Shown here: positions 3,291-64,000 of the stretch, piece after piece | Position numbering within the stretch: the first letter of the stretch is position 1 | How the letters are laid out: the number at the start of each line of letters is the position of its first letter | Assembly: GCF_006345805.1 (NCBI RefSeq) | Contig: NC_043012.1 | Span: 9,796,001 to 9,860,000, forward strand | Reading direction: 5' to 3' | DNA from: Octopus sinensis | Lineage: Eukaryota | Length of the DNA: 64,000 nucleotides | Notes under the pieces: model-generated | Told to the model about the DNA's origin: nothing | What the model saw: the letters and a program-made list of their open reading frames with translations, nothing else | The model's database searches: none | Translations under genes and position numbers: made by a program

Positions 3291-4075
3291 ACCCCACGTA
3301 ACATGGTTATCCTGACCGCCAAGTACACCCCAGTAGACGCCACTATTCTTCTCAACTCATCCGGTTTATAAACGAAAGTTCAGAGTAGGCCCATTCACAC
3401 GGCCATTCTCGCCACATGTACCCTCATTTCAACAAATTTCCGGAAAAGGTCGAAGATGAAAGTGTCTCTCTTCAGTGCTTTCAGTCTCGTCCACCACACT
3501 TCCTACTTTTCCATTGCCATCAGATAGAGGAAAACTGCCTTTCCTTACGGAGCAAAGGAAGGCGGCAGGGCGGCGATGGACACGACTGATAACCGGATTC
3601 GTCCTACACACGACAAGAGCTGTTCGACCAAGCTCTACAAGTTAATAATGCACGGGCACTGGACGTATCCGTGCAAGAGGTATACGTCACTCTGCACCGA
3701 CCTCGGACAGGTCCGTCCGACAGTACTTCCGTGTCTTTAGAGCTTCTCTTAACTGGCAGATATCCCCGGTAGAAATGCCGGGCTAGAGATTTCTAGCATT
3801 TATCTCTGCCTGAATGTCCTCCTTGAAAGACCAGTTAATTGATCCCTAACGACGCCCAGTGTTTCCTCAAGGACGTTGTCGCTCTTTCCCGCCACTAATC
3901 CCCTATAGAACTTCATGGTAGAACTGACCACGATATCCGACTGGCAGAAAGCTGTGAGTACTTGCCGACACTCCAGGTACCAAGCGCCCTTTCTTTGTCT
4001 ACGTTTTATCCAGGACTCCGTCAATGAGAGAAACTGCGGAAAATACTGCTTGACAAACGGCGACCACACGTGCTC
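3291..4075 (-). mobile_element. Tx1/L1-like LINE 3' fragment
   Basis: WSPFV..., KFYRGL, LAWHFYRGYLPV, CPRCG...H..C knuckle remnant. Confidence 0.6.
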
Positions 4076-4295
4076 ACCGTTATTTTGGGAGAGCGTTATG
4101 TCAGTTACATCAACCCCAGTGTTTCACTGGTATCTAATGTATCGCCCACGGAAGGATGAAAAACAATGTAATAATATAATCAGGAAAGTATTATAGAGTT
4201 CAAAGGAGCAGATAGCATGGCACCGTAGGCTGTAGGGAGCAAGCACGATATACATGCAAGACAAGAAAAAATAACAATAGTAGTAGCAGTTGTAT

Positions 4296-4340
<45 letters not shown>

Positions 4341-4648
4341 CAGCAGCAGCAGTAGTAGTAGTAGTAGCAGCAGCAGCAGTAGTGGTAGTAGTATGGGAAC
4401 AACTGAATAGCGGTCTGGGGCCGATATATGAAGTCACAGAAACGAAGATGGTGAGGAAAGACAAAGGTACGAGCTTCAAAGGAAGTAGATAAGACAGAAA
4501 GGATTGTAGGCAGTTACGGCGGAGATAAAACGAAAATATTAAAGCATTATCACATAATATATACATACGCGCACACACACACACACGCATACACACACAC
4601 ACACACGCACACACACACACATACACACATATATATATATATATAAAA

Positions 4649-4852
4649 CGGCGGCGAGCTGGCAGAATCGTTAGCGCGCCGGGCGAAATGCGTAGCCGTA
4701 TTTCGTCTGCTGTTACGTTGTGAGTTCAAATTCCGCCGAGGTCGACTTTGCCTTTCATCCTTTCGGGGTCGATAAATTAAGTACCAGTTACGCCCTGGAG
4801 TCGATGTAATCGACATAATCCGTTTGTCCCCTCTGTGTTTAGCCCCTTGTGG
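4649..4852 (+). mobile_element. SINE with gcctttcatcctttcggggtcgataaa central motif (MetaSINE-like, from recall)
   Basis: B-box gagttcaaattcc; further copies near 300, 1072, 40330, 55040 and 59124. Confidence 0.7.
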
Positions 4853-4974
4853 GCAGAAGTGAAATACATATATATATATATATAAAACACGTACCAATAG
4901 AGAAGAAACTAGCACGACCAGGGCAGAATGTTCAGGAATAACGAAAGAAAATGCAGGCAACTGCTAAATCGTGA

Positions 4975-5600
4975 ATGGGAGTATCAAGGGAATGACAGAG
5001 CTTTTCTATCAAGTTTTGCGAAACGATTGGTGATACTCAACTTCAAGCCATCCAGAATTTTCAGCAGGTATTTGGTGATGATGCCACGGGTAAAACTCAG
5101 ATCAAGACGTGGTGCAATCACTCCAAACATGGGCTCACTTCGGGGGGGGGGGGCAGGTAGACTCAGGCGGGTCATCCACAAGCCGAAACGAGAGGCTGAT
5201 TGAGGATGTTAGGCAAATAATCCCGAGAGACCGTCATGTAGCAACTCAGGAAATTGCTTCACGATGTGGGAATAAGCTCGGGATCAATGCATTCCAGAGA
5301 GTTTAGGCAAACTTCGTCCCGAAGGTTGTGGCGCAGCAGAAGAAGCAATTCCGTGTGTAAATCACTCCGATCATGCTGGACTGTGCACACCACTGGTGAT
5401 GATACATGAGTTTATGGTCTCTACTCGGTGCGTTCGGTCATCTTACGTGAAAATGTAAATTCGTCAGGCGCACATTACACTTCTGTTTGCAAGGCGCAAT
5501 GATCGGGAGCACAGCAAGGGCGGCCAATAGGTTTTTAGACATGCAGCATTAGTTTTGGCGGGGAAAAAATGGAGTCATATAATTTCTGAACACTCCTCAA
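4975..5600 (+). mobile_element. Degraded mariner-like relic
   Basis: STSRNERLIEDVRQIIPRDRHVATQEIA, HTH-like remnant. Confidence 0.45.
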
Positions 5601-5869
5601 ATGTATTTGTGCGTTGTATGTATACACATATATACATGTATGTACCTCTTTCTCTCTCTTGCTTTTGAGGGTTATAATAGCACAGAGATTACTGGCACAA
5701 AGCCTGTTGATGCTGAGATGAATTTGAATGCCACTGCAGTTGATGGAAGTAAAGATAATAACAGAAATAAAAATAACACAGAATGATAGTAGTAGTAGGA
5801 TTAATAATAATGATAATAATAATAACAATGACGGGAATATCAATGATTTTAATAATAGTAATGCTCCTG

Positions 5870-6330
5870 GTTGCAATTTTAGAGTGAAATTCCTAGCCCG
5901 GCAGTGCTACCGGGGATATCTGCCGGTTCATACAAGCTTTAAAGACACGGAAGTACTGTCTGACGGACCTGTCCGAACTGGGTGCGGTGTGACGTATACC
6001 TCTTGCACGGATACGTCCAGTGCCCGTGCATTATTAACTTGTGGAGCTTGGTCGAACAGCTGTTATCGCGTGTAGGATGGATCCGGTTATCAGTCGTGTC
6101 CATCGCCGCCCTGCCGCCTTCCTTTACTCCGTAAGGAAAGGCAGTTTTCCTCTATCTGATGACTATGGAGAAGTAGGAAGTGTGGTGGACGAGACTGAAA
6201 GCACTGAAGAGAGACACTTTCCTCTTCGGCCAAACCGTCATCGACTTTTCCGGAAATTTGTTGAAATGTGGGTGCATTTGACGAGAATGGCCCGTGTGAA
6301 TGGCCTACCGTAAATCCTCGATTATAATCC
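5870..6330 (+). mobile_element. Tx1/L1-like LINE 3' fragment, inverted relative to the 3291-4075 copy
   Basis: High similarity to the reverse complement of about 3370-3790. Confidence 0.6.
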
Positions 6331-6721
6331 GTATTTTGTTTCCCGAAATTTAAAGATTATAGGTGCCATACTTGAACTTTGACGGCGGAAATTAATTTTG
6401 GTATCGTATATACTATAAACTTACACTCTAGTATTAAATATTATAAAATCATGGGATATTAGGTTATATGGTGAATTAAATTGCATCGCATATATTATAA
6501 GCTATATGTTATGGTATGTGGTGGGCTATATGTAATTACTATCGCATGATAACCCCTGCCTAATTAGTCTGACTTCATCTTATTTTGGTGATTACACTAT
6601 TTTTTCCTTTCTATGATGTTCTACCCTACTGATCATATTATGTATATTTCTAATGATTTTATGTAAGTCAGTCTCCTGACTAAATTATATACCCCCTAGA
6701 ATCTATAATATCATATACACA

Positions 6722-7103
6722 TGGAAGCACTCCGTCGGTTACGACGACGAGGGTTCCGGTTGATCCGAATCAACGGAACAGCCTGCTCGTGAAATTAATG
6801 TGTAAGTGGCTGAGCACTCCACAGACACGTCTACCCTTAACGTAGTTCTCGGGGATATTCAGCGTGACACAGAGAGTGACAAGGCCGGCCCTTTGAAATA
6901 CAGGTACAACAGAAACAGGAGGTAAGAGTGAGAGAAAGTTGCGGTGAAAGAGTACAGCAGGGATCACCACCATCCCCTGCCGGAGCCTCGTGGAGCTTTA
7001 GGTGTTTTCGCTCAATAAACACTCACAACGCCCGGTCTGGGAGTCGAAACCGCGATCCTATGACCGCGAGTCCGCTGCCCTAACCAATGGGCCATTGCGC
7101 CTC
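6722..7103 (-). mobile_element. tRNA-derived SINE
   Basis: Head ggaggcgcaatggccc..ggttagggcagcgg..ggtttcgactccc; same family as 26892-27261. Confidence 0.8.
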
Positions 7104-9121: not shown

Positions 9122-9152
<31 letters not shown>

Positions 9153-9305
9153 GTGACGTATTTTTGCCATTTCATATGGCTAACCCCTAAGGGTGGATGC
9201 TACTGTAGTTTTTAGCCCCAGGAGGACACACTCCTCCAGCTGGCCATAGACAACACTATCTGTGTCCTGTCAGTATTTGCAAAGGGAAGTCATCCTTCCC
9301 GTCTT

Positions 9306-9375
9306 CAACTTATGATACACACGGACTCAAGTTTCGAGGTATTGACCTCTCGTCAGCGTGTGACAATCATAGTTG
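9306..9375 (-). ncRNA. Type I hammerhead ribozyme, copy 1 of tandem unit
   Basis: Reverse complement: CACACG-CUGACGA-GAGG-ucaaua-CCUC-GAAAC-uuga-GUC-CGUGUG; complete core and extended stem I (CAACU AUGAU/AUCAU AGUUG). Confidence 0.9.
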
Positions 9376-9659
9376 TCGCCGAGAATTAGATTTCCTTCAC
9401 AAATACTTATACTTTTTCCAGCGTCCACTGTCGCTGATATTGAAAAAGTGAAATCAAACAATGATAAATATCAAAGTGAGTTATATACAGTAGCGGTAAC
9501 ACATCGTGACGTATTTTTGCCATTTCAATATGGCTAACCCCTAAGGGTGGATGCTACTGTAGTTTTTAGCCCCAGGAGGACACACTCCTCCAGCTGGCCA
9601 TAGACAACACTATCTGTGTCCTGTCAGTATTTGCAAAGGGAAGTCATCCTTCCCGTCTT

Positions 9660-9729
9660 CAACTTATGATACACACGGACTCGAGTTTCGAGGTATTGAC
9701 CTCTCGTCAGCGTGTGACAATCATAGTTG
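9660..9729 (-). ncRNA. Type I hammerhead ribozyme, copy 2 of tandem unit
   Basis: Reverse complement: CACACG-CUGACGA-GAGG-ucaaua-CCUC-GAAAC-UCGA-GUC-CGUGUG; palindromic ACUCGAGU stem III. Confidence 0.92.
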
Positions 9730-9863
9730 TCGCCGAGAATTAGATTTCCTTCACAAATACTTATACTTTTTCCAGCGTCCACTGTCGCTGATATTGAAAA
9801 AGTGAAATCAAACATTGATAAATATCAAGTGAGTTATATACCGCTACTGTATATAACTCACTT

Positions 9864-9908
<45 letters not shown>

Positions 9909-13859: not shown

Positions 13860-16426
13860 CGCTTTTAGGGTCAGAAGGGCTCTACTTTGCGAAGTAAAAG
13901 TTAGAACTGTCTCCCTTACGCCGTAAGATGCTCTGTAAAACATTTCATGCACACATCAACGTAGAATTCAACGACGAAAACAAGGCTGCCCTACGCAGTG
14001 GATCCAGTCATGTACAAGGACGACACAATCGGACGCGTCTACACAGTTCACCCCTTGAACTCCGAATGCTTCCATCTGCAGATCTTACTTCATGTCATTA
14101 TGTGACCAATTTTCTTCGACGACCTTCGCACAATGGACGGCAACTTATGTGGCACTTTCAAAGAATCCTGTTCCAAACGGATACAGATGATCAATATGAT
14201 AATGCACTTGGAGAGGCCTCTCTGTGTCGTTTTCCGTACAAGCTCCGACAACATTTCACAATAATGCAGGTTTTGTGCAATTTGGAAAAAATACAAATAA
14301 TCAATGTGCCATGCCATTTTGCTGTAGACTCGCCAAATCACAGTTAGCTTTGACACTCCCACTATCCCTGCCATTTACAAAAGAAGTATTCTTCTCTTGG
14401 AAGACTTGGTTATAGCAATTGGCGCTCAACGATTGGATGCTTATTCTCTCAAGACTTCAGACAGAAATGAAGACACCTGTCCCAATTGCCTAATTCTCGG
14501 AGAAACATCCTACAACATCCACAGGCTCAAACATTACAATACGGACAACAAGCCCCTTCTGAATTCCGATTAAGCTGACGTTTACAATTTCGTCCTCGGA
14601 AACATCTACACACACACTGGCGTAATCAGCTTCTTAGACGCACCCGTTAGAACTGGGAAAACATTCCTCCTGAATCTTCTTGCGAATTTGCGGCATAATG
14701 GTTACCTTGCTACTACTGTTGCCTCCGCAGGAATAGCATCGACTCCTCTCAACGGTGGATGAACAGCTCACTCGACCTTCGAGTTGCTTTTTAATGTAGC
14801 ACACCAAGAAAACTCAACGAGCCACATAATGCATTACTCGGACAAAACGAGAATTATGTTTGAAATGAAGGAACTATGCCCCATAAATGATCCCTACAAG
14901 CATTTGATACCACAATGAGAGACCTTAAATCGAACAACAACATCCTTGGAAGTGCGACTCTACTTCTTGCAGAAAATTTTCGACAAACTCTGCCTATTAT
15001 ACCCAAAGGAACACACGCGCGTGAACTTAATGCCTGGCTTAAAAAAATCTTACCTCTGGTCGCGTGTACAACTCACCATCAATAGATCACTCTTACAGAC
15101 TGGTCAAGCTACAACCTAGTTTTCGGAAATGCTACTTAAATTCGGCAATGGAGAAATTACATCCGACGGCAACGGATACATTGATACTACCATCATTGGC
15201 CCCACTCTCTCTATCCCTGATGACTTATGTTCTGCCGTTTATCCAAATCTTACAACGGAATAAATAAAACCAAACTGGCTTCGAGAGAGGGCTGTTCTTG
15301 CACCTACAAATGCAGCTGTCAACACTCTTAACTGTGACTTACTCAATCAGCTACCTTCTCAAGACACAGTTACCGACCTTGATCAGGTTACACATTTTCC
15401 AACGGAATTTCTCAACTCCCAAGATCCTCCACTACTTCCTCCCCATGAACTCCACTTAAATGTCAGTTGCCTCGTCATCCTCCTAAGCAATCTAAACGCA
15501 TCCACACTATGCAATGGAACTCGCCTTGAGATCAAACAAATAATGGACCAAGATATTGAAGCCCAAATTATCACAGGACACGGAAAAAACAATACCGTTT
15601 TCATTCCGAAAGTTCCGCTAACCCCAACAGACTGCCCCTACCCTATGCAGAGTCTTCAGTCCCCTCTCAAACTCAGCTTCACCATGACCATTAACAAAGA
15701 ACAAGGTCCGTCGCTGAAAATTGTCGGATTGGACCTTCGAACGTCGTGCTTTTCCCATGGACAGTTCTACGTCGGTTGTTCCAGAGTTGGCCATCCAGTC
15801 AACTGAAAGAAAAACAAAAAACGTCGTCTACAAATCAGCCCTACGTAGTTATTCTACAGCATTTTTCACATCTACACCAAATTGTAGCCGTTAGCAATAA
15901 GACTTCCCGCAAGCATTTCATTGATATTTTGATATTTTGCTTCGTCTCCCTGATTGCTGTTAGCAGTGCATTACCTTCATTGACCATTTTTACTTCACAC
16001 ACGCTGTTCGCTCATAAGCATGCTCTGACATTTATCTTTGATACATGCCATTATTCTATTTGCATGTTTGCTATAAATGTTTGTGTTTTTTTTTTATCAT
16101 ACGTGACTTTCAATGAAAAAAACCTTCAATGTGGTTGTGTCAGACATTACGAGAAAAATAAGTACATGACACAAAACACTGGCAGTTGCGATCTCGTTTC
16201 ATGGCCTTTCATTTATAACTAACTGCCAAATTTGTGTTCCCATAAATTTATTAATTACCTAAGTTTCTTTAAACCATATCATAAACTACTAACGAAAATA
16301 GTAATTATACATTGTACGCTTATCAACTTCAAACGATTTCTTACTGCGAGCTAATTCAAATTAAATCGTCCACAGGAGTGCACCCTTATGATAAGTCCCG
16401 CCGTTCAAAGGACGAGTGCATTTACT

Positions 16427-23040: not shown

Positions 23041-24690
23041 TATATATGGATGACCTAAAACTATACGCTGCAAATGAGAAACAGCTGGAAACACTATTAA
23101 AGACAGTTCATGGATTTACCAAAGAAATAGATATGAAATTTGGATTAGAAAAATGCGCCAAAGTAACCATGAAAAGAGGAAAACTAGTTAAGAGTAGATA
23201 AAACCAATGAAATAAAAGAATTAGACCAAAGCCAAACTTACAAATACTTAGGAATCCATGAACTAGATAAGACACAACACACACAAATGAAAGAGAAAAT
23301 AAAAAAAGAATATTATAGACGAGTTAGATCAATACTAAACACAGAGCTCAATGCCAAAAACAAGATAATAGGTATCAACACTTTAGCTGTCCCAGTTATA
23401 AGTTACAGCTACAATATCCTTAACTGGACACGAAATGAACTGACCAAAATAGATAGGAAAACAAGAAAAATAATGACAGGATCTAGGATGCATCACCCAA
23501 AATCTGACATAGAAAGACTATATATACAACGTATAGAAGGTGGTAGAGGCCTTATACAGCTGGAAAACTACTATAAAATAACCACCATAGGACTGCAAAA
23601 ATATCTACTTCAGAAGGAAGGAAAACTGATCCAGATAGCGGCAAAACACGAGCAAAACAAAAAACTGTTCTCAGTATTTAAGGAAGCTGACAAATACAAA
23701 CAAGAAATCATACCACCTAATAAACATGAAGAAGAAGAAGAAGATGAAGAAACAACAAAAGCTATAAAACAAATGAAATCCAAACTAAAAATAGAACAGC
23801 AACGAACCATGATAAAACGATGGCAAGAAAAGCCCCTTCATGGTAAACACTGGACTAAACTAAACGCAAAAGAAATAGACAAAGAAAAATCCCAGCAATG
23901 GTTGAGAAGCTCAGGACTCAAAGCAGAGACAGAGGGATTTTTAATTGCAGCCCAAGACCAAAGCCTCCCCACCAGAAATTACCAAAAACATGTAATGAAA
24001 AGAAATATTACAAGTAACTGCAGAATATGTGGAGATGGACAAGAAACAATAAATCATATTATCTCAAGCTGCTCAGTCCTGGCTAAGAAGGAATATATTC
24101 ACAGACATGACAGAGTTGGAACCTACATACATTGGAAGCTATGCCAACATTATGGAATAACAACAGAAAAAAGATGGTATAGGCACACACCAGAAAAGGT
24201 CACAGAAAACGAGAAAGCAACCATACTCTGGGATATGCCGATACACACAGATAGAGAAATTAAGGCCAACAGACCAGATATAGTTGTCAGAGACCATGAA
24301 GAAAAAAAATGCTTTCTAATTGATGTATCAATACCGGCTGATGACAACGTGTCTCTAAAAGAAATGGAGAAACTCTCAAAATACAAAGACCTGGAAACAG
24401 AGGTAACTAGAATGTGGAATCTGAAAACAGAAACAATTCCTATCATAGTAGGTGCATTAGGCATGATAAAAAAATATTCAGACAAATACATAACAAATAC
24501 ACCAGGACTTACAAACACATATAACATAATGAAAATTGCACTACTAGGCACTGCTCACATCCTACGCAGAACACTTTCCATACAATAACCACCAGAGCAT
24601 CACAACAAATCACAGCACATACCTAAGGCACACAGAGCTGCGCTCGGTAGTGAAGTGAAAGCACGTTATAAAAATAAAACTACTGAATGA
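23041..24690 (+). mobile_element. R4/Dong-like non-LTR retrotransposon (RLE type), 5' truncated
   Basis: Starts at RT motif YMDDLKLYA; ORF 23287-24588 has GGRGL, AAQDQ, CRIC..H....C knuckle and RPD..D..K..KY endonuclease; flanked by (TAA)n. Confidence 0.92.
23287..24588 (+). CDS. C-terminal part of LINE polyprotein (RT thumb, CCHC zinc knuckle, restriction-like endonuclease)
   Basis: Uninterrupted 433-aa ORF with R4-clade motifs. Confidence 0.8.
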   Translation: MKEKIKKEYYRRVRSILNTELNAKNKIIGINTLAVPVISYSYNILNWTRNELTKIDRKTRKIMTGSRMHHPKSDIERLYIQRIEGGRGLIQLENYYKITTIGLQKYLLQKEGKLIQIAAKHEQNKKLFSVFKEADKYKQEIIPPNKHEEEEEDEETTKAIKQMKSKLKIEQQRTMIKRWQEKPLHGKHWTKLNAKEIDKEKSQQWLRSSGLKAETEGFLIAAQDQSLPTRNYQKHVMKRNITSNCRICGDGQETINHIISSCSVLAKKEYIHRHDRVGTYIHWKLCQHYGITTEKRWYRHTPEKVTENEKATILWDMPIHTDREIKANRPDIVVRDHEEKKCFLIDVSIPADDNVSLKEMEKLSKYKDLETEVTRMWNLKTETIPIIVGALGMIKKYSDKYITNTPGLTNTYNIMKIALLGTAHILRRTLSIQ

Positions 24691-31861: not shown

Positions 31862-32374
31862 ACAGAGAGATACACACACATACACACACACACACACAAG
31901 CACACAAACTCGCACACAACCTAGCTGGAGGAGGCGTCCTCCATGTTGAAGTGGCGATAGGCATTACTTCCCAGTATAGTTACAACTTCCATCTTTTCTA
32001 GGGATTTTCTAACTAGCTGATTTGCTTGCGAAGAGTCTATCATTGTGCTTTATTTTAAGAGACCTCGCTATTTTCTGCTGAATACTAAGCTAGAACTTAT
32101 CATTGTGCTTCTCTATGTCTGTCTGTCTCTGTCTGTGTATGTGTGTCTATCTCCTCACTCACTCTCTCCTTCTCTCTGTCTGTCTATCTCTCTCTCTCTC
32201 TCTCATGCATGTATGTGTGTATGTATGTATGTATGTATGTATGTATGTATGCATGTATGGATGTAAGTACGTACGTACGTACGTATGTATGTATGTATGT
32301 ATGTATGTATGCATGCATGTATGTATGTATGTATGTATGTATGTATGTATGTGTGCGTGTCTGTATGTACAGAT

Positions 32375-38349: not shown

Positions 38350-39778
38350 TATTCTATGTTTGACTTTTGCGTTACATTTGCACAAGCTGGCTCCAAGTCT
38401 CACCCAGAGACCTCAAGAGACAACAAGTTGGAAGTTCGTGTTGGTGTTATGCCTAGGGTGCCATATATTTGGTTTTGTACTTAGTGTTGTACTAGTGAAT
38501 GCCTAAAAAACCATACGAAAATTGTGTTTGTTTTAAAACTTGAGATTACATAGAAAGTATTTTGCGTAGGATATGAGCAGTTCCCATGAGCACTACCTTT
38601 TGAATTTCTGCCATTTTTGAGTTTCCTGGTATCTGCGTTAGGTAGCAATCAGCCCCTTTTGCTATCATTCCCAGGGCACCTATGACTACAGGTATTGTTT
38701 TAGTCTTCAGGGTCCACATTTTGCTGATTTCTATTTCAAGATCTTTATATTTGCTCAGTTTTTGGTAGGTCTTGACAGATACGTTTATATCGATTAGGAC
38801 AGTCATATCAATGAGGAGGCATGTTCTTTGTTTGAAGTCTTTCAATATGATGCCTGGCCTATTTGCATCTATCTTTCTGTCAGTTTGAATGGGGAAGTTC
38901 CAGAGGAGTGAGAGGTGGTCATTTTCAAGCACTGGAGGTGGTTTGTGTTCCCACCAATTTTTTTTATGGTGCAAGTCCAGGCTTGTGAAAATTACCCAGT
39001 GAATATATTGTGCAGCTCTATCATGCTTGTTGAGGTACTCTGTAGGCGCGAGAAGACTGCACTTGGAGACAATATGATCAATGGTTTCATTTTGTTGTTG
39101 ACATACTCGATATGTTGGGCGACTGACGTTCTTTAATATGTTGGCATTGTAGTTCCTTGTAGGTAGGCATTGATCTTGAGCTGCTAGGATAAACCCCTCT
39201 GTTTCAGATTTTAAGCCAGAGGCCATTAGCCATTGATAGGCCAGGGCTTTGTCAACATCTGCATTATTCGCTCTGTTTGGGTATTTGCCATTGAGAGGTT
39301 TTTCTTGCCATTTATCATTCAGAATATTTAAGGCCGCAGATTTAGCACGGGTTTTCATGCGCTTAGCTTTTTCTGTGCTTGTTTCCTGTATGTCTAAACC
39401 GAAATTTGTTTTATTCGGAATTCACTTAGATATTCCTTTGCCTGTTTTGTTACTGAGTATGATACTTACTTGTGTTCATGTTTTGAGACAAGTTTTAACA
39501 TCCAGTCCCCAGAGGTTTTGCAGGTAGGTGTCTAAGGCAATTGTAGCAATCTTCATTGTTATTGCCAGTTGCAAAAGACAACGGCCTCCCTCTTTTCTTG
39601 GCAGATAAAGTCGTTCTGTATCTGCCTTAGGGTGGTGCATTCTATGCATTGTCAACGGTTTTCGTATTTTTCTGTCAAGATTACATATTTCAGTAATTGA
39701 CCAGTTAACGATATTGAAACAGTAAGTCACGACTGGTATGGCTAAAGCATTGATCACTTCGATCCTGTTTCTCGCATT
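38350..39778 (-). mobile_element. R4/Dong-like LINE 3' fragment with frameshifts
   Basis: ORFs 39476-39757 and 38546-39358 homologous to the 23287 ORF; 3' end adjoins (TAA)n. Confidence 0.9.
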
Positions 39779-40113
39779 GGCGTTGCTCGGATTTGTTTTC
39801 TTTTCGACCCTTTAGAATTGGAATTTTTGAAAAGTAAAACGTTTGCATTATGTAGTTTGTTATTCTCTTTAAGTGGCGACACAGTAGTCAAAAAATTGTA
39901 AAAAAACTAGGGATTTTCATAGAAAAAAAGCACCAAAAATAATTTTTGGTTTTAATTTTAATTTTTCTTCTATGGAATGAAGAGCAAGCCTTTTTCTATC
40001 ATACTCTCAATTTTGGTCAACTTTCGCCGCAAGGTCTCGGAGGAGATAGTGTTAGTTGAAGGCTACCAAACCTGCCACACACACACAGACAACTCCAGGT
40101 TTATATATAAAGA
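39779..40113 (-). mobile_element. Non-autonomous Helitron, 3' end truncated
   Basis: Reverse complement starts TCTTTATATATAAA and ends at ccgagcaacgcc, as in the 11996 element. Confidence 0.7.
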
Positions 40114-50560: not shown

Positions 50561-51004
50561 GAAAAATGTTTTTTTAATTTTTTTAAAAATCCTCTGACGC
50601 ATTATTTGTACTGACGGAAGAATCATTCAAATTTTTACAAAAAATATTTATGGGGGTTGGGATCCCATAAGTTAAATTGTTCCCTCCAATCTGTTCCAAA
50701 TAAATTTTTCGTTGTACTAAGCACTCTTGTTTTTCATTGTACTAAGCACTCTTTTTATCCATCTTGTTTTTCGTTGTACTAAGCACTCTTGATAACATAC
50801 TTGTTTTTCGTTCGAACGGATTTAGTGGGATTTTTTAAAAGCCAAGAAGAAATTTCCTCTAGCTGGTGAAAACTGCACAACTACATCTGATATATTGTGA
50901 GCAGGGAATCGAATCCCTACCCCATTCTAGCGACGGGACCAACACACAGTTTGCTTCAGGCTGCAGAGCCATTCAGTTGTAGTATTATGTTGTTCTTGCT
51001 TATT

Positions 51005-51782: not shown

Positions 51783-53790
51783 GCCTTTGCACAGCTTCTA
51801 ACGCTGGAGATGTACTACAGTGTCAGCTGTTCACTACCAGTGAACTAAAGTAACACCTCTTATTTTTCGAGTCACCTTCCGGAGTATTCAAGCGGTTCCA
51901 ATCAGTGCTGTTTTCTGCAATTGCTCCACCCTTACTGCAGCCCCTATTTGCTCCACGTACTTTTCGAGATTTTTGCTCACTGTTCCCAGGGCTCCGACAA
52001 TTATTGATAGTACTGCTACCTTTTTTAACAACCACAACTGCTTAACTTCCCAAGCTAACCTGTCATATCTGTCGACTTTTCTTTCTTCCTTATCGCATGC
52101 CTTGTTGTCAGCTGGGCATGCAATATCTATGATCCAGCATAGTTTGTTTTCTTTCTCAATTAAGACTATGTCCGGCTTCCTATTCTCAATCTCATGTTCG
52201 CACTGAATCATAAAATCCCATAGGATCTTTGCATTACTATTTTCGACAATGCCTTCAGGTTTGTGGTCGAACCAATTTTTTGCTCTGTCAAGTCCATACT
52301 TGTTGCAAAGTGTCCAGTGGACAAGCCTGGCTATATTGTCGTCATGTCTCTTATATTCCTTCTGGGCTAGTGGCGTACATTGGCCGGTAATATGCCATAC
52401 AGTTTCACCGTCTTGTCTACAGATTCTGTACTTATCACTTTCTGCGGTGTTGTCTATTCTATATTTTATGTAGTTTGTTCTTAGTGATTGCTCTTGGGCA
52501 GCACAGATTAGAGCCTCCATTTCCGGTTTTAAATCATTTTTAGTCATCTACAGCCGTCTTTTTTTCTCAGTCTGTCTTATCTTCAACAATACTATGAAAT
52601 TTGCATGCATTCTTTTCTTTATCCACCTATTTTCTGTTTCATCCGTTTTCTATTTCTTGTATAGTGCTTATCTTTGCAATCTTTCATCCTACACAAGTCT
52701 GATCTTCCTACTTCTAATAATAGCGGTTCTGTGGAATTTTTCATATACTATGCTATGTTGTATTCTTCTGCTTTAATGCTGTGTTCGCATCCAATAAGTC
52801 CTCTTCCCCCTCTTTTTCTTGGTACATACAGTCTGTTTGTGTCACTTTTTGGGTGGAGAACCCCCGTATCTAGTTAGCAACTTCCTTGTCATTCTCTCTA
52901 AGCTGTTTAGTTCGTCTGCTGTCCATGAGATTACCCCTGCTCCATATCTAAGGAGTGAATTCGCCCAGGTGTTGATAGCTTCGATCTTATTTCGTCCGTT
53001 TAATTTCGACTTAAGGATCAGTCTTTAGTCTGCGTAAGTACTCCACCTGAAATTTTTCTGTCATTTATTTCTCCATTAATTTATCCATTTCCAAAATCCC
53101 CAAGTACTTAGCCCGTCTCTTCTATCTGCTTCATAATCTCCCCCGACCGTATCATTAGTCCGTCCATACATTTGATTTTGCCTCTTTTCAATACGAACAC
53201 ACTACACTTTCTCAGTCCGAACTCCATTCTGATATCAGCACTGAAGGTATACACCGTATCAACGAGGAAACTGACTTGGGCTTCATCATTACCATAAAGT
53301 TTGAGGTCATCCATGAAAAGCAAATGGTTGACTTTTTGTTGGTGGCTTTTGAATACATACCCATCTTTTGCTTTCCTCAGAATCAGTGTCAGTGGTATCA
53401 AGCACAGTAAAAAGAACAGTGGAGACAGGCTGTCCCCTTGGAAGATGCCCCTCCTAATTTCTACTGTCCCTAAACTTCTTCCGTATGCTGTCAGGTCCGT
53501 CCTCCAATTCACCATACTTTTTCCAAGCCATCGCTCCACATTCGATGCAATCCCAAACAGGTTCATACACTCCATAATCCAAGAATGTGGAATCCTATCG
53601 TACGCCTTACGATAGTCGACAGCATGGCTAAGTTATTTTCCTCCTCTTGCAGTCTCTGAGTACAGTTTTATCTATCAAGACTTGATCTTTGGTACCTCTG
53701 CACTTACGCTTGCAATCCTTCTGCTCATGTGGCAGGATTCCATTTTTTTCTAGATATTTGTACATTGACTCTTCGAGTATTCCAGTCAAT
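51782..53790 (-). mobile_element. R4/Dong-like LINE, degenerate RT plus RLE
   Basis: RGIFQGDSLSP, HLLFMDDLKLY, AQEQSLRTNY, RKPDIV; 3' end in (TAA)n. Confidence 0.9.
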
Positions 53791-55609: not shown

Positions 55610-56668
55610 ATGAATCCAATTGTTCTTTGCAAAATTATTGTACTCATCATTGTATTTTTATCGACCATAACTGCTGGTTTGTTACCGTTTGTTATGCTGA
55701 AATTCTTGAAACGAAAAGGAGAAGAACATTCTCCATCATTTAATAACGCAAAGATAAAAATGATTCTCAGTTGCTTGAATACGTTTAGTGGAGGTGTCTT
55801 TTTAAGTGCTTGCTTCATTCATCTGCTCCCTGAGGTGCGCAAACACATGCAGAAAATACTGCTGACGTTGAATATCAAAACGAATTTTCCAGCAACGGAA
55901 TTTATAACTATATTTGGCTTTTTCATTATTATAATGATGGAACAATACGTTTCACTTTGCTTTAGAAAGAATGATAAACACTCAAAAAACAATCAGGATC
56001 TCGATGAAAGCGAAACTGGATCTGGAAGCAGAACAAACGGAAAAAAAACAGCCTTATACCTACCCGTAGAAGAATCGGATGACACGAATCGACTTGTTTC
56101 TCGTCGACTTTCCGTTTCTAGTGTTCATTCTGTAGAATCCATGAGAAGTGAAATTCTCAAGCGGGTAGATGTGGACACGCACAATCATGTGCATTTCTCA
56201 AACGAAGAGAAAGAATCTAGTTTACGTTCAGTACTGTTGTTACTGGCCTTGTCACTTCATACAATTTTTGACGGATTAACCGTCGGTTTGGAAAAGACAG
56301 TCAATAACGTCTGGTCGATGTTTACTGCAGTAATTATTCATAAAATATTAATTGGTTTCACACTTGGTCTCCAAATGTTTGAAAATGCTCAGTGGTCAGT
56401 GAGACGGACGATTTTTCTAATGTTTATTTTCTCTGTGATTTCCCCCATAGGTATTGTGATAGGTATTTTAATAGAAGACCTAAATGTTCAGAGCGTTTCT
56501 GAACACTTTGTGTCCGCACTCCTTAAAGCGTTGGCAACAGGTACGTTCATGTACGTAACATTTTTTGAGATTCTGGGACGAGAGATTTCTCATGATGCAA
56601 CACCATTACAAATATTATTTGCTATCATCGGTTTTGGTATGATGACAGAACTTGCATTTTTTGATTAA
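55610..56668 (+). CDS. ZIP (SLC39A, ZIP1/2/3-like subfamily II) zinc/divalent metal transporter, 352 aa, intronless CDS
   Basis: About 8 hydrophobic segments; LNTFSGGVFLSACFIHLLPE; FPATEF; His-containing loop THNHVHF; TM4 LALSLHTIFDGLTVG; TM5 VIIHKILIGF; SPIGI; LATGTFMYVTFFEIL. Confidence 0.95.
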   Translation: MNPIVLCKIIVLIIVFLSTITAGLLPFVMLKFLKRKGEEHSPSFNNAKIKMILSCLNTFSGGVFLSACFIHLLPEVRKHMQKILLTLNIKTNFPATEFITIFGFFIIIMMEQYVSLCFRKNDKHSKNNQDLDESETGSGSRTNGKKTALYLPVEESDDTNRLVSRRLSVSSVHSVESMRSEILKRVDVDTHNHVHFSNEEKESSLRSVLLLLALSLHTIFDGLTVGLEKTVNNVWSMFTAVIIHKILIGFTLGLQMFENAQWSVRRTIFLMFIFSVISPIGIVIGILIEDLNVQSVSEHFVSALLKALATGTFMYVTFFEILGREISHDATPLQILFAIIGFGMMTELAFFD

Positions 56669-56704
56669 GTTCAAGCAATCAAGGACATGGTGACGTAATA
56701 TGAA

Positions 56705-57072
56705 ACAAAAGCACTCAAAGAACGCAAACCTTCGTCAAAGCAACACCAACGTCCTCTCAACGATTAACTGGAGATGACATTTAAAATGAAAATATCTGAA
56801 ATAACATCGAATGCTCTCACAAACGAGAATACTAAAAATGAATCCGACTGCTCTCAAATATTAAGTGAAAGGACAGGAAAAATAATCCAGAATCCCTGTC
56901 CGGTACGGATCGATCCCAACATCTAATCGCTTGGTGCCAGTCACGAGGCCAAACATCCCTGAAAGTTTTATCCGAATCCATCCAGCAGTTCCTGAGATAT
57001 CTTGTCCACGGACAGACAAACAAACAAACACGACAGAAACAATGCCTCCGCCGTAAATAAGGGGGAGGTAAT
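56705..57072 (-). mobile_element. Helentron/DINE-like non-autonomous element just downstream of the ZIP stop
   Basis: ttacctcc..ggaggcattgtttc..(gttt)n..gtccgt start and gtttgcgttctttgagtgcttt end; homologous to 50231-50560. Confidence 0.6.
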
Positions 57073-57401
57073 AACTACTTTTCCACTGATGGATTAGTTT
57101 ATTTTTAGAATCGGACAAAATACTTGCAAGATTTATTTCGGTTTCTTACGTTACATTTTCATATACTGAGAACGTCAAATTCACGTTTCGTCATTCCGGG
57201 ATTCATAAACTGTTGTCAAGTATTTTCACTGGATTAATGCATCATACACCAGTCTTCCAATTCCAATGTCTGTAGATGTGTAAAAAGCAATTATTTAATA
57301 ATTATTATTCAACGGTCTTAGTTTTGAGCGCTTTCACAAATGAACATAACTCTGTCTTTGGTACAACATTCATATACATATTTACACACATAGACACGCG
57401 C

Positions 57402-57446
<45 letters not shown>

Positions 57447-57764
57447 TATGTGTGCAAGATATAATAATCAGATTAAAGTATCAAGCAGAACCCACTGTAA
57501 GCATTCTAATCGAGGACTAGGCTGCCAGGTGCCAAATATAATGAATTCCAAAGTAAGATAAGTAGGAGAAAATCATGTGTATATACGTATAATAATATTT
57601 CCATTGTGAAGCATATTATAAGCAAATTAAAGGAATCGTGTATAAAGCGTTTTAATATGAACTTATCTATCTGTGTGAAATTCTCTGGACTACAATTAGT
57701 TCATGAATTTGCTGCAAATTCATAATGCTGACGTAAATTGGGTCAAAGCCACGTCTAATGTAAT

Positions 57765-57773
57765 ATTATTATT

Positions 57774-57840
<67 letters not shown>

Positions 57841-57928
57841 TATTATTATTATTATTATTATTATTATCATTGTTATTATTGTTGTTGTTGTTATTATTAT
57901 TATTATTATTATTATGTTGTTGTTGTTG

Positions 57929-57963
<35 letters not shown>

Positions 57964-57997
57964 GTTGTTGTTGTTATTATTATTATTGTTGTTGTTG

Positions 57998-58032
<35 letters not shown>

Positions 58033-58066
58033 GTTGTTGTTGTTATTATTATTATTGTTGTTGTTG

Positions 58067-58113
<47 letters not shown>
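57765..58113. repeat. (TTA/TTG)n microsatellite
   Basis: Direct read; one of many such tracts. Confidence 0.95.
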
Positions 58114-58663
58114 GAGTGAGAGAGTAGGGCATGCCATCAAAGTGACACTGGTGTAAAATATACGAAGCCCAGTATACTCATCATGACTACCCGTCTGATA
58201 AGGGTACACTAGGCACATGCATCACAACCATATGTGCGCGACATGGTTATCTCATATCAAGATAAACAGCACATGACCTTGCAGGTGGGGCCCAGTTAGA
58301 ATTTTCTTCTGGTCGAGTAACCTATCCCGCTCAAAAGGTCCTTGAATAAGGGTTGTTTAAAGATGGTGAATGAAACACCCATGTTTCCAGAATTATTCAA
58401 ACCCAAAAGAATTCCTCTCAACACACAACTATGATGCTCCCCCACTACTTCTGCTCGTGATCAGAGATGCACATATCGTCAGCCACTAAGGGACATGCTC
58501 AACTGGTTAAGGTCAAACAACTGACAAGCAAATCTGTGGTATTGAGCAGAATATTTGCTGTAGCCCATCTTTTATACCAAGACACAACAATATACATGAT
58601 AACACTTCCAATCAGTTAAGATCAGAAGCTATTAGAGCCACTGCTGGTACTGCATCAGGGCAT
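58114..58663. mobile_element. ~550-bp non-coding element inserted in (TAA)n (longest copy)
   Basis: Homologous pieces at 21946-22313, 22473-22801, 24704-24840, 37690-37845 and 37928-38075. Confidence 0.75.
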
Positions 58664-59021
58664 TTATTATAATTATATTATTATTATAATTATATTATTA
58701 TTATTTTATTATTATTATTATTATTATTATTATATTATTATTATTATTATTTTATTATTATTATTATTATATTATTATTATTATATTATTATTGATAGTA
58801 GTAGTAGTAGTATTATTATAGCACGCGGAGCAAAATACTTTGTGGCATTTCTTCTCAGTTCTGAGTTCAAATTCCTCCTTTCGTGGTCGATAAATTAAGA
58901 TCAAGTGAAATGTTGGGGTCCATGTAATCGATTACTTCTCTCCTTCAAACTTTCAGGCCCCTTGTATCTTTAGCAGAAATGATTATTAATATTGTTGTTG
59001 TTGCTGTTGTTGTCGTTGTTG

Positions 59022-59077
<56 letters not shown>

Positions 59078-59350
59078 GTTATTATTATTATAATTATTGT
59101 TGTTGTTGTTGTTGTTGTTGTACAGGCGCCGAGCTGGAAAAATCCTTAGCACTCCCGGAAAAATGCTTAGCAGCATTTCGTCCGTATTTACGTTTTGACT
59201 TCAAATGCCGCTCAGTTGAGTTCGCCTTCATCCTTTTGGAGTCCGTGAAAGAGTCCGTATGTATTTCTGTGTGTCTGCGTGTGTATGTGTGTGTGTGTGT
59301 ATGTACACACACACACACACACACACGCGCGCGCATATACACACACATAT

Positions 59351-59490
59351 GTGTTCCTTTCTGTGGAAGAGCGTAGGCTCGAAACATTAAAGACCTTTTC
59401 AATTCCCGAGCGTTATACTAATACATCTGTTTGTTTTCTATACCACCTGTCTTCGTCTTTTGTTTTTTTCGTGAATTCTCCCCCTATATA
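59351..59490 (+). repeat. Short repeat family with a hammerhead-like CUGUNGAA-GAGC-GUAG-GCUC-GAAAC motif
   Basis: Homologous copies at 49260-49462 (+) and about 8790-8960 (-). Confidence 0.6.
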
Positions 59491-61042
59491 AAATCACACA
59501 CTATATCTGTCTCTTACCCCACACATTTCTCTATACTCTCAGAATCTAATATAACACCTGATCCGACATAACTCTGGAACTTCCCGTCCCCCATTCTGTT
59601 TGTCGTATTCTAACAATTCTACGCTCCCGATTTTTCCATTCCTTTGCACTTTACCCAACTGAAATTTCTCAATCCATTTGTTTCATCTGCAGAGGTGGAC
59701 TTCCCTAAGTTGAAACTAGACATGTTTTATGTCAAACTCCTAGGTCCCAAACCGTCATCGAACATTCCTCTACCTTTCTTGCAAAGCATATTGAAGAAAC
59801 GATAGTTGAGCAACATAAATAGCCAAGGTTTCAGAGTGAGAGAAAACGCTATGTTGTATCATTCATCCTACTGTGATGTTTAGCGGCAACGGTTGTGAAT
59901 TAAATTCATCTGTTACGACTAGTCGCGGATGGATATTAAATATTATCTAAAAATATATTAAACATAATTAACAGATACTAATAAATACCTATATTGTTGA
60001 TATGGAAATGTTTGTGAAGTCCTATTATCATATTATTGTCAAAGATAATCTTATTTTAGATACATTTTTTATCGGGAAACCATGTGATTCTCGACGTACC
60101 ATGTGACCTCATTACTAAAGTATGATAGATGCAAGGTCGGCTAGTATAATTCCATGTGATATTGTAATCAAATAAATGATTACAATGAACCTAGGTTGAT
60201 GTTTAGCTTATATTTTGCTGAACATTTTAAAATACATATTTACTCGTTTATAGGATATCTCACCAAGATAACGTAGTAGTATTCTGCAGAATTTTATATA
60301 GGACGAATGTATTTGCAGAAACAGAGTGATACGACTGCACTGTATTAAGAAATCGTGACCCAATAAGTAAAACTTACTCACATCACCCGAATGAGATAGG
60401 TATGTAGACAAACACTCGTCTAATTTTACACGTCATATAAAAATAAACCAATCACCTGAGGGAGCGTTATGTGACCTCATTAACTACTTTTTGGTAAAAA
60501 TGTAAACATCTATACTTGAAAGAATCCACTAACACTTTTTGATATTCACCACTCCTTTCACTAACACGTCTATTAAAAAACAAACACACGAAATTTCTAT
60601 TTCTCTCTGAGACTTTTTCCAATATAAGTGATTAGGAATTGCGTATTAAAGACCCATTGCAGCGTATAATACGCAAACGTTCTTAATTTGCCACCAGGTT
60701 TCAAATTCCTGTCGGAGTTGTTTTGTGAATCAACATTTGTTTAAAGAGAAAATAATAAAGAATATATATTTTCTTAACTAACGGCGTTGTTTAATGCTCG
60801 GGTCACTGGTTTCAGTCATTCCCGCATCTGTGAGTGTTTATGGGTATGCAGGTACTAATATATGCGTTTATTGTATTCGAACTATTTGTGTTTACCTTCA
60901 GTGGTGGACATCCGTCCGCTAGAGAGAGTGTAATACTTCATTCCAGCACACAATATATAGAAAAATAGGTGACAAACATCCAGTGATCTTGCAACAAGCA
61001 AAATAGCTAGTTACAAAATTTCTATAAGACATGTAAGTCTCG

Positions 61043-61101
61043 GACGTGTGTCCACCGCTGAGGAGAGCACGAATAGCTCGAAACCTGACGGTCTGGTCGT
61101 C
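61043..61101 (+). ncRNA. Type I hammerhead ribozyme (solo)
   Basis: ACCG-CUGAGGA-GAGC-acgaaua-GCUC-GAAACC-ugac-GGUC-UGGU with possible GACG/CGUC extension; predicted cleavage after C61093. Confidence 0.85.
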
Positions 61102-61129
61102 GTCGTTGAGATGTTAGGGTTCGCTCCTA

Positions 61130-61661
61130 TATGTATGTATCTATGTATGTATGTATGTATGTATGTATGTATGTATGTATGTATGTATGTATGTATCTAT
61201 GTATTTATGTATGTGTGTGTATGTATGTATGTATTTATGTATGTATACATGTATGTATGTATGTATGTATTTATGTATGTATGTATGTATTTATGTATGT
61301 ATGTATGTATTTATGTATGTATATATTTATGTATCTATTTATGTATGTATGTATTTATGTATGTATGTATGTATGTATGTATGTATGTATGTATGTACGT
61401 ATGTATGTATATATTTATGTATCTATTTATGTATGTATGTATGTATGTATGTAGTATTTATGTATGTATTTATGTATGTATGTATGTATGTATTTATGTA
61501 TGTATGTATGTATTTATGTATGTATGTATGTGTGTATGTATGTATGTATGTATGTATGCATGTATGTATGTCTGTATTTATGTATTTATGTATGTATTTA
61601 TGTATGTATGTATGTGTGTGTGTGTGTATGTATGTATGTATATTCTATCTATCTATTTATC

Positions 61662-61710
<49 letters not shown>
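61130..61710. repeat. (ATGT)n then (TA)n microsatellite
   Basis: Direct read. Confidence 0.95.
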
Positions 61711-61713
<3 letters not shown>

Positions 61714-61878
61714 AGATTTAATTTAAAAACATATTTTTTTACTTTTCATTTGTCTTGCTCACTTACATTTCTGGTGTTTGCTAAATTTTCTAGAGAACAA
61801 TTCTTAGTGGTAAGATCATAGCGGATCTATTTCTAGCATTAAGGTGTCCACATATTGGTATTCCCTCTTATATGTATG

Positions 61879-61979
<101 letters not shown>

Positions 61980-61989
61980 CTATATACAT

Positions 61990-62340
61990 TCTTTTATTCT
62001 TTTATGTTTCAGCCTTGAGGATGCGGCCATGCTGGGGCATCGCACGTGTAATCACCTTTTAATTGGCCAATTTTTTTGTTTTTACTTTTGATGAAGTGGG
62101 GAGTTCGAAACTGCTGCCCTCTCTTGAGTTTCTTGCCTTGATATTGGTTCATCTGGGATCTTGGATAGCAAGTAGTCAAGTTCTTCCCTTGAAAACAACT
62201 ACACTTACTCCATGGAAAATCCTCAGATGTTCTGGCAAGGAGTTAAATATCTGTGGGTTAGCGAATCCCAAGCTATTGCAGAACATGAAGCTCGCCTTAG
62301 ATGAGACACCTGAGACTTTTGGAACGGCAGTGACGTCCAT
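61990..62340 (-). mobile_element. CR1/Jockey-like LINE 3' end
   Basis: NSLGFANPQIFNSLPEHLR..; tail ccccagcatggccgca..ctgaaac. Confidence 0.6.
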
Positions 62341-62381
62341 TACGTATATATGTAAATTTTTTCTATGCCCTTAATTATAAT

Positions 62382-62421
<40 letters not shown>

Positions 62422-62433
62422 CGTGTGTGTGTG

Positions 62434-62743
62434 TGGAGGCGCAATGGCCCAGTAGTTAGGACAGCGGACTCGCAGATGTAGGATCGCGGTTTCGATTCCC
62501 AGACTGGGCGTTGTGAGTGTTTATTGAGTGAAAACACCTAAAGATCCATGAGGCACCGGCAGTGTGTGGTGGTGATCTCTGCTGTACTCTTTCGCCACAA
62601 CTTTCTGTCACTCTTTTTTCTGTTGGCCTGCTCGCTTAGCCAGCGGGGTGGCGTCGTCTGAAGGTTAAAACAATGCGAAGCACATTGTGACCAGCGATAT
62701 GTAGCAACATCTGATAGCCTGGTCGGTCACGGTGATCACGGTG
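62434..62743 (+). mobile_element. tRNA-derived SINE
   Basis: Homologous to 10036-10338. Confidence 0.8.
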
Positions 62744-62756
62744 ATATATATATATC

Positions 62757-62905
62757 GAGACAATGGAATTTACCATGCTACGCCAGACTTCACGGTCCAT
62801 CATGGCATTACGGAGGTCCTGTTGCTGGATGCCTGTATCCCTGGAGATTACATCAGGGTAGGAGAGTGTGCGCCCTCTGGTATTGCGAGTAGATGGCTTC
62901 AAGAA
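62757..62905 (-). mobile_element. RTE-like LINE 3' end
   Basis: KPSTRNTRGRTLSYPDVISRDTG..DLRNAMMDREVWRSMV. Confidence 0.6.
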
Positions 62906-63399
62906 ATCTCCTTGCATCTTACGTGATACAAATAAATACCATATCAATGCTAAGAAAATATTTAATCTCATTCTGTGACAAAGTCTTTCTTTATTAATTC
63001 TGAACATAAAGGTCCTTGATACAGTCTGAGATGGGACCTCCCTTCGTGGTTGGAAATTTTTCCTGAGCAACATATGTTTGTTTCATTATTTCCAGGCATA
63101 AACTTCCTCTGTGTAAAACACATTCCAATACTTGTGAATGTGTCCGGCAATGGTGGAAAACTGGGTAATGGGAAAGTATATGCAATATGGGTGTATCGGC
63201 AACTGACTCTCAATTTGAAAGATATCAGCATGGAAGTCTGTTAGGAGATTTTGAAGTGCAATGGAATCCTGTTTTTTTTCTACCTTCGATCTAGTGATAG
63301 AGTTGTAAACGGGACTGTGTGCTTGTGATGAAGATTTAATGTATGAAATAACATCACACAACTTTTCCAAGGCCGAAAAGTTCAAGAGACAGCAATCAG

Positions 63400-63850
63400 T
63401 ACAAAAATGCATAGTAGCTGTCTTTGGGGTTGATAATGGTGTCCGTGGCTGTACCGAGAAACTAAAAAAGCTTACAGAAGCCATTCAGAAGGAGAGACCG
63501 AACAAAACTCTGAAAGCAATACACGTTCACCATGAAAATGTTCGATTGCGGACGCTTGGCATCAAATCAAGAGATTGGCAAACGGGGCAAGTTAGTGCCC
63601 CCTCCCATTTCCCTTCGCACCCATCATACTTTACAGCCTCGTCCCGTTTGACATCCACTAGTTCGCAGCAGTAACAAAAATCATCGGGAACAATAATTTC
63701 ATGACAATGGATGTGAAAATGGTTGAGACGTTGGTACGATAATACAAATCTAATCTATGAAGATTCAGGTGTTGGGTCCAACGATCGGATAAATGCAACA
63801 TCTATGATAGAGATTATATTGAACAGCAGTATTATATACAGGACGGTTGC
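63400..63850 (+). mobile_element. Degraded mariner-like relic
   Basis: LKKLTEAIQKERP..HHENVR..HPSY. Confidence 0.5.
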
Positions 63851-64000
63851 TGTGCCGACACGTGCAATTTATAACTGAGTTAGTTAATGATTTATGCTCA
63901 CTTTTGCATTATTTTCGCTATAGCCGTCATAATTTAAAATAATGAGAAGTTGACTATCATTGTTTTTCAAATGGTGGCTTGACTAGAAGCTCTGAGTATC

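Follow-up and report, generated by a model that had tools for sequence, protein, structure and literature searches.

A hammerhead ribozyme motif downstream of an octopus ZIP gene is probably a relic of an old retrozyme-like repeat family

The hammerhead motif located downstream of a ZIP zinc-transporter gene in the 64 000-nt stretch of octopus DNA analysed here (hereafter, the window) is very likely a true type I hammerhead, carried by a truncated and approximately 20% diverged copy of a repeat of approximately 360 nt; this repeat would be an extinct non-LTR retrozyme, and the motif would play no role in ZIP expression. Repeats of this size with type I hammerheads have been described in molluscs and in many invertebrates, whose genomes contain thousands of them. 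The coordinates of the features discussed below are given in table 1.

Table 1. Features of the repeat insertion and of the neighbouring ZIP gene (positions in the window).
Feature	Positions	Strand	Basis
type I hammerhead	61052–61100	+	sequence, descriptor and fold
forward fragment of repeat unit (model 135–233), 89 nt	61041–61129	+	57.3 bits to family profile
inverted fragment of repeat unit (model 17–177)	60876–61038	−	127.7 bits to family profile; 75–81% identity to dispersed copies
broken 5' half of a second hammerhead, antisense to 61042–61082 on + RNA	60876–60917	−	sequence comparison and predicted pairing
(TATG)n then (TA)n microsatellite, adjoining the forward fragment where it is truncated	61130–61710		sequence
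ZIP zinc-transporter coding sequence in a single exon (352 aa); neighbouring gene, outside the repeat	55610–56668	+	Pfam PF02535 Zip, E 5.5e-56
single-copy stretch under RNA-like contigs, likely distal ZIP 3' UTR (putative)	59443–60750		contigs in 4/4 runs
poly(A)-signal-like site: AATAAA 60754–60759 and GU-rich 60786–60792	60754–60792	+	sequence; use inferred

Anatomy and origin of the motif

The canonical core, the 4-bp stem II, the 3-bp stem III and the GUC triplet, all of which had been claimed for this motif in the initial annotation, are indeed found between positions 61058 and 61093. The core is formed by CUGAGGA (61058–61064) and GAAA (61080–61083); stem II (61065–61068/61076–61079) closes a 7-nt loop; stem III (61083–61085/61090–61092) includes the A15.1–U16.1 pair and carries the loop UGAC; and the triplet (61091–61093) sets the predicted cut 3' of C61093. 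Three helices surround this core, and the order CUGANGA … GAAA … UH, with stem I open, is that of a type I hammerhead. The word ‘intact’, which had also been applied to the motif, is appropriate for the core (0 differences in 11 core columns of the family alignment) but neither for stem I nor for loop III. Stem I (61052–61057/61094–61099) has a proximal part of 4 bp (61054–61057/61094–61097) whose first pair is G–U, followed by a C–C mismatch (61053/61098) with one further pair beyond it, and its distal 3' strand carries a deletion. The palindromic loop III and the extra base of the family are both missing. Concerning the features of loops I and II, the copy retains U1.7 (61100; see PMC11875169 for its tertiary contact) as well as the A that ends loop II, alongside one change in loop II and the distal deletion in stem I. 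Since the core is complete and the two bases involved in the tertiary contact are present, the isolated motif may plausibly self-cleave, with chances that we would set close to even.

A chance arrangement of letters could be suspected, as the motif matches no hammerhead model of Rfam, whether at the gathering score or at E-values up to 10, and the minimum free energy (MFE) fold of the region is a competing hairpin instead of a hammerhead (z 0.33 to −0.39). However, the Rfam scan at gathering score also missed the clear hammerheads at 9356 and 9710, so that the miss reflects the coverage of the models, and plain MFE folding is uninformative here, a competing hairpin being predicted for these clear young copies as well. 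Moreover, the same descriptor yields only 0.005 matches per shuffled 64 kb on both strands (1 in 200 dinucleotide shuffles), which argues against chance, and homologous hammerheads with paired changes are present in dozens of loci. A chance origin, to which we would give a very small probability, is ruled out by the family alignment.

An old and dispersed family of repeats

When the 2.72-Gb genome was searched with positions 60700–61130 (the initial annotation had proposed 60720–61130 for a test of family membership), a dispersed repeat family was retrieved: among 465 candidates, of which 40 were scored, 50 non-self matches at 74–87% identity were obtained. With the ribozyme part as the only query, there were 14 non-self matches (15 of 15 candidates scored), and with the full unit 1,496 first-look candidates; among the 40 of these that were scored, the best non-self full-length copies are only 77–83% alike, from which we conclude that the family is old. 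An alignment of 44 ribozyme segments and their flanks delineates a non-coding and circularly permuted unit of approximately 360 nt with 46% GC, which carries one type I hammerhead and occurs as dispersed, multiple copies. With its single type I hammerhead, this non-coding unit falls within the size range of metazoan non-LTR retrozymes, approximately 170–400 nt.

The copy under study is not solo, contrary to its first description: an inverted fragment of the same family adjoins it, and the family itself is scattered genome-wide. In the order of the window, the insertion consists of model positions 177–17 inverted, joined to positions 135–233 forward, then of (TATG)n. At other loci, the upstream part and the ribozyme part match opposite strands, since the former derives from the same element in inverted orientation. 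The forward fragment stops well short of the usual 3' end of the family. Wrap-around pieces of the family end at model positions 51–69 in 13 of 14 cases, and neither arm of the window insertion reaches this point; since neither outer end lies at the usual 3' end of the family, both ends of the insertion were likely lost. Among the 46 loci of the old family, 27 display an adjacent same-strand piece, mostly partial, and 16 an adjacent inverted piece. No long tandem array was seen among the loci examined, and the copy at 61052–61100 is not itself tandem. The unit, these tandem and inverted arrangements, the divergence of the copies and the inverted-plus-forward anatomy of the window insertion are thus direct observations.

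Old-family pieces number three in the window against two, both weak, in 128,698 other bases. Besides the insertion at 60876–61129, two fragments of the family in the window, at 50833–50961 (−) and 31923–32035 (+), do not contain an intact ribozyme core.

Decay of the ribozyme within its family

The ribozyme alignment was built from 30 of the 44 segments, the 14 others (partial, second copies or indel-rich) being left out; it leans towards well-kept copies, because of this omission of poor segments and because 7 of the 30 were found through the ribozyme query. In these 30 segments, the hammerhead helices are paired in 83.6% of the cells, and 13 of 18 pairs include a change on both sides; the covariation score was reached by 0 of 500 shuffles, in a control that ignores the relatedness of the copies. 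The family ribozyme displays a 6-bp proximal stem I and a 4-bp stem II, an extra unpaired base after A9 and before stem II (29/30), U1.7 (28/30), a terminal A of loop II (29/30) and a loop III that is most often palindromic (GUAC, 8/30).

Placed in this alignment, the copy at 61052–61100 differs from the majority in 9 of 67 columns, versus a mean of 10.3, and 14 of the 29 other copies have 9 differences or fewer. A perfect core is also found in 12 of these 29 copies. Its stems, with 2 differences against a mean of 3.76 (8 of the 29 others have 2 or fewer), are better kept than average, which, like the complete core and the retained U1.7 and last A of loop II, speaks against the preferred reading; its 4 differences in loops are the highest value among the aligned copies. 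The cost of the hammerhead fold for the isolated motif (8.3, against 5.7–6.7 for the young family described below and 2.2–9.4 for siblings) does not separate this copy from the others. The full descriptor is passed by 4 of 32 ribozyme segments in loci L002–L030, which were found almost all through the upstream arm, and by 3 of 10 segments in loci found with the ribozyme query, so that the fold of our copy is that of an ordinary survivor. No excess conservation relative to paralogues was detected in the family alignment, and this copy shows no sign of being special among its siblings. CpG sites differ at a rate of 0.270 (of 259), versus 0.136 (of 1,623) elsewhere in the alignment. The family, whose copies are approximately 80% alike, likely decays neutrally.

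A history consistent with these data can be proposed by analogy with the retrozymes of PMC7229834, PMC8557442 and 10.64898/2026.07.22.740005, from whose accounts the transcription, cleavage, circles and mobilizing partner are taken. Tandem units would be transcribed and cut once per unit by the hammerhead, releasing monomers of approximately 360 nt. A Penelope-like reverse transcriptase and endonuclease would return these monomers to the genome, in many cases accompanied by an inverted piece truncated at its 5' end. The window copy would then have lost both outer ends and decayed neutrally, its core surviving by chance.

Possible transcription from the ZIP side and possible co-option

The motif lies on the same strand as the ZIP gene, approximately 4.4 kb past its stop codon as initially noted (stop at 56668, i.e. 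4,375 nt before 61043), and transcription reading as far as the ribozyme had been suggested to let it cut the 3' UTR or read-through RNA. Contigs of four runs (X1, X2, X4 and X11), which carry no RNA annotation on record and are only guessed to be RNA, bear on this point. In all four, the first covered position is 55484, next to an AG acceptor, the preceding 184 nt are free of contigs, and X2 and X4 have loose contig ends there; such a start fits spliced RNA on these three grounds. From there, contigs span the ZIP frame and the UTR up to 57395, the end of the stretch examined. Further downstream, contigs of the four runs cover 59443–60750 at 98–99% identity (only 59883–60656 for X1), and positions 59500–60870 have a single match in the genome, namely themselves. 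Because this cover extends over single-copy DNA up to 60750, transcription, presumably on the ZIP strand and continuous with ZIP, likely comes within approximately 300 nt of the ribozyme, nearer than the distance of 4.4 kb implies. A convergent gene was considered as a source of the cover at 59443–60750 and rejected, visual inspection of 61700–64000 and of the next 10 kb having revealed nothing but short frames and fragments of retroelements.

The last RNA-like cover thus ends approximately 290 nt before the ribozyme. On the ZIP side, contigs end at 60656 (X1), 60750 (X2), 60735 (X4) and 60691 (X11), and 60780–61128 has no contig cover in these four runs, where contigs stop upstream at their own ends and a record filter applies. 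This gap is not usable as evidence: the stops are spread over 95 nt, contigs can show neither the end nor the strand of an RNA, the filter intervenes, and the animals differ by 1–2% from the window. An AATAAA hexamer lies 334 nt before the cut site, the other hexamers being further upstream, and the end of the mRNA is predicted near 60775–60782, approximately 315 nt before the cut. RNA polymerase II normally transcribes past the poly(A) site (PMC6938672), and nascent ZIP RNA could therefore include the motif. Transcription may thus plausibly run on from the ZIP side into the ribozyme; a cut within the mature 3' UTR is less plausible. The ZIP 3' UTR (56668–60780) may be approximately 4.1 kb long, with several repeats, and summed contig depth is high at 56770–57050 and 59340–59500.

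Given this setting, a copy co-opted by ZIP would cut either a longer isoform of the 3' UTR or the nascent RNA downstream of the predicted poly(A) site; it could thereby clear transcripts that missed this site, or leave a 5'-OH end refractory to the termination exonuclease. The inverted arm would serve as an off-switch. The strand of the motif, its perfect core and retained U1.7, the RNA-like contigs reaching 60750 and the AATAAA with its GU-rich stretch are all compatible with this scenario. So are published precedents: a ribozyme placed downstream of a poly(A) site in human cells cuts the read-through RNA, the resulting 5'-OH product being undegradable (PMC6938672), hammerheads exist in Clec2 3' UTRs (PMC6155905), and exon-overlapping retrozymes of Xenopus tend to lie in 3' UTRs (10.64898/2026.07.22.740005). 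Yet the copy is no better conserved than its paralogues, its fold also persists in the four siblings mentioned above, and a few intact copies near gene ends are expected by chance, on a rough inference, since at least approximately 1,500 candidate copies exist.

The inverted arm stands against co-option as well. In read-through RNA, 60876–60917 is predicted to pair with 61042–61082. The hammerhead fold costs 7.0–9.9 kcal/mol without the arm and 25.2–38.8 kcal/mol with it, versus 8.8 ± 1.4 (37°C) and 10.8 ± 1.8 (20°C) kcal/mol with shuffled arms (20 shuffles) and 5.7–7.9 for young copies in similar context, all these values being equilibrium predictions that take into account neither the kinetics of folding nor the contacts of the core and of the tertiary structure. 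The arm is thus predicted to block the ribozyme, adding roughly 17–29 kcal/mol against the active fold: as ZIP read-through RNA would make the antisense arm first, the latter would pair with the 5' half of the ribozyme and keep it inactive. A regulatory role is therefore unsupported, the motif being a fragment of a decayed repeat, free of excess conservation, preceded by a poly(A)-like site and faced with a sequestering arm, and we consider co-option very improbable.

A variant of this idea, which we find barely credible, is that a dead retrozyme copy was retained just past the poly(A) site of ZIP to cut read-through RNA in a switchable manner: the arm would keep it off, and disruption of the duplex, for example by A-to-I editing, would free it. 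If it were true, a transposon ribozyme would have been recruited into host 3'-end processing or termination; if simple co-option were true, a natural ribozyme would act beyond a poly(A) site, a situation mainly known from engineered tests. On the preferred reading of a decayed retrozyme copy, the motif as found matters little and is likely an ordinary transposon remnant.

Relation to Penelope-like elements

Alternatively, the repeat unit could be the pseudo-LTR of an autonomous Penelope-like element, the window insertion then being a 5'-truncated and partly inverted end fragment. Inverted 5'-truncated pieces and partial tandems, which are hallmarks of Penelope elements (PMC8557442), are common in the old family, 60876–61038 (−) abutting 61041–61129 (+) as inverted pieces do at 16 of 46 loci, and the unpaired base before stem II (29/30) is described for the minimal hammerheads of Penelope (PMC4209133). 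The family ribozyme is nonetheless canonical, with its 6-bp stem I, 4-bp stem II and U1.7 (28/30), and does not have the minimal Penelope form. In the alignment, the sequence upstream of the unit is either the end of a previous unit or free of common sequence. Penelope-type GIY-YIG frames are abundant in this genome (147 matches of 150 scored, with open frames up to 883 aa), but none of the 20 loci checked among these 147 carries the unit or shares its 3' flank with it, bar one weak piece of 17.7 bits, in what is a small sample dominated by few families. Similarly, among the frames examined in the window, neither a reverse transcriptase nor a GIY-YIG frame was found beside the insertion at 60876–61129. 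We thus hold the pseudo-LTR reading to be unlikely. Three loci of a GIY-YIG-bearing family, L087, L088 and L097 (G000 C10, C6 and C13), have open frames of 538–883 aa and, within the sequence retrieved for each locus, are devoid of the CUGANGA–GAAA motif.

A related young family in the same window

The initial annotation implied three hammerhead families. Two were found, and strict, relaxed and minimal descriptors detected no third one in the 64 kb of the window. The second family is represented by a tandem pair at 9150–9841 (−), with a 354-nt unit and 98.6% identity between copies; genome-wide, it counts 1,264 candidates and long tandem arrays at 96–100% identity. Its hammerheads at 9710 and 9356 have a 6-bp stem I, a 5-bp stem II and a 2-bp stem III. 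The insertion as a whole (9150–9873, −) includes a 35-nt inverted piece, with (TA)n on both sides; both orientations are present in 11 of 16 loci of this family and (TA)n occurs in a flank in 14 of 16.

The flanks of the motif at 61052–61100 had been judged unrelated to those of the other families. This remains correct for the own flanks of the copy, but not for the unit of its family, as approximately 100 nt are common to the old unit (model 265–368) and to the young family (9514–9604 and 9151–9250, −; 41.5 and 35.5 bits). From this common segment we conclude that the old and young families are related. The segment lies near the 3' ends of both families and is a candidate recognition signal for a mobilizing enzyme. 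Young copies end at two places approximately 45 nt apart (query positions 218 and 261–264), like the tail described for Penelope-like elements. The young insertion is a better target than the motif at 61052–61100 for a test of circular RNA.

Two related retrozyme-like families, one old and one young, are thereby added to this genome, and the inverted, truncated insertions of both agree with the idea, already proposed, that retrozymes are mobilized by Penelope-like elements.

Other features of the window

Non-LTR retrotransposons have left fragments beside (ATT)n at 23188–24588 (+), 38546–39811 (−) and 51888–53632 (−), where reverse-transcriptase and zinc-finger domains are matched, and similar ones at 3300–7000 of the next 10 kb (L101); by their motifs, they presumably belong to a clade with a restriction-like endonuclease. 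A fragment of a Pif1 helicase 2B domain (15264–15806, +; E 4.8e-12) is presumably a Helitron remnant. Near-identical blocks approximately 1.7 kb apart (19157–19546/20860–21249 and 18475–19040/20087–20688), with identical 129-aa frames, stem either from a tandem duplication in place or from an artefact of the assembly.

Comparison with known systems

A literature search found no report of retrozymes in octopus, which is weak evidence of absence; the supplements of PMC7229834 and 10.64898/2026.07.22.740005 may list cephalopod families. Four known systems offer points of comparison. Like the hammerhead of the Clec2 3' UTR (PMC6155905), the window motif is on the sense strand, downstream of a coding sequence; however, Clec2 ribozymes are described in that source from several mammals and inside the mRNA, whereas no excess of conservation is seen for the window motif, which is likely situated past the poly(A) site.

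The pseudo-LTRs of Penelope elements (PMC4209133, PMC8557442) share with the present case an inverted 5'-truncated piece beside a forward piece and an extra base before stem II, and with the old family a palindromic loop III as the commonest form. The old family differs from them by its full canonical ribozyme and by the fact that no linked reverse-transcriptase or GIY-YIG frame was found.

Sm-alpha of Schistosoma mansoni (PMC6155905, PMC11875169) is likewise of type I topology, with a proximal stem I of 6 bp and a stem II of 4 bp; here too, U1.7 is unpaired and loop II ends with an A, and these two bases could form the loop contact. In contrast, stem I of the copy at 61052–61100 is imperfect, with a mismatch, a G–U pair and a distal deletion.

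Finally, retrozymes bearing hammerheads are a known kind of element (PMC7229834, PMC8557442, 10.64898/2026.07.22.740005), and Mytilus galloprovincialis, in particular, is described as harbouring non-LTR retrozyme repeats of approximately 350–390 bp with type I hammerheads (PMC7229834). In contrast with metazoan retrozymes, the old family consists mostly of monomers and partial tandems with approximately 80% identity between copies, and the window copy, cut short at either side, lies directly against an inverted fragment. In other respects, the metazoan non-LTR retrozymes of PMC7229834 are like the old family: a non-coding unit of approximately 360 nt with one canonical type I hammerhead and a GC content near 45%, head-to-tail pieces, many dispersed monomers and Penelope-like elements in the genome. 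The proportions of the stems in the old family are, likewise, the canonical ones of metazoan type I hammerheads (PMC4209133).
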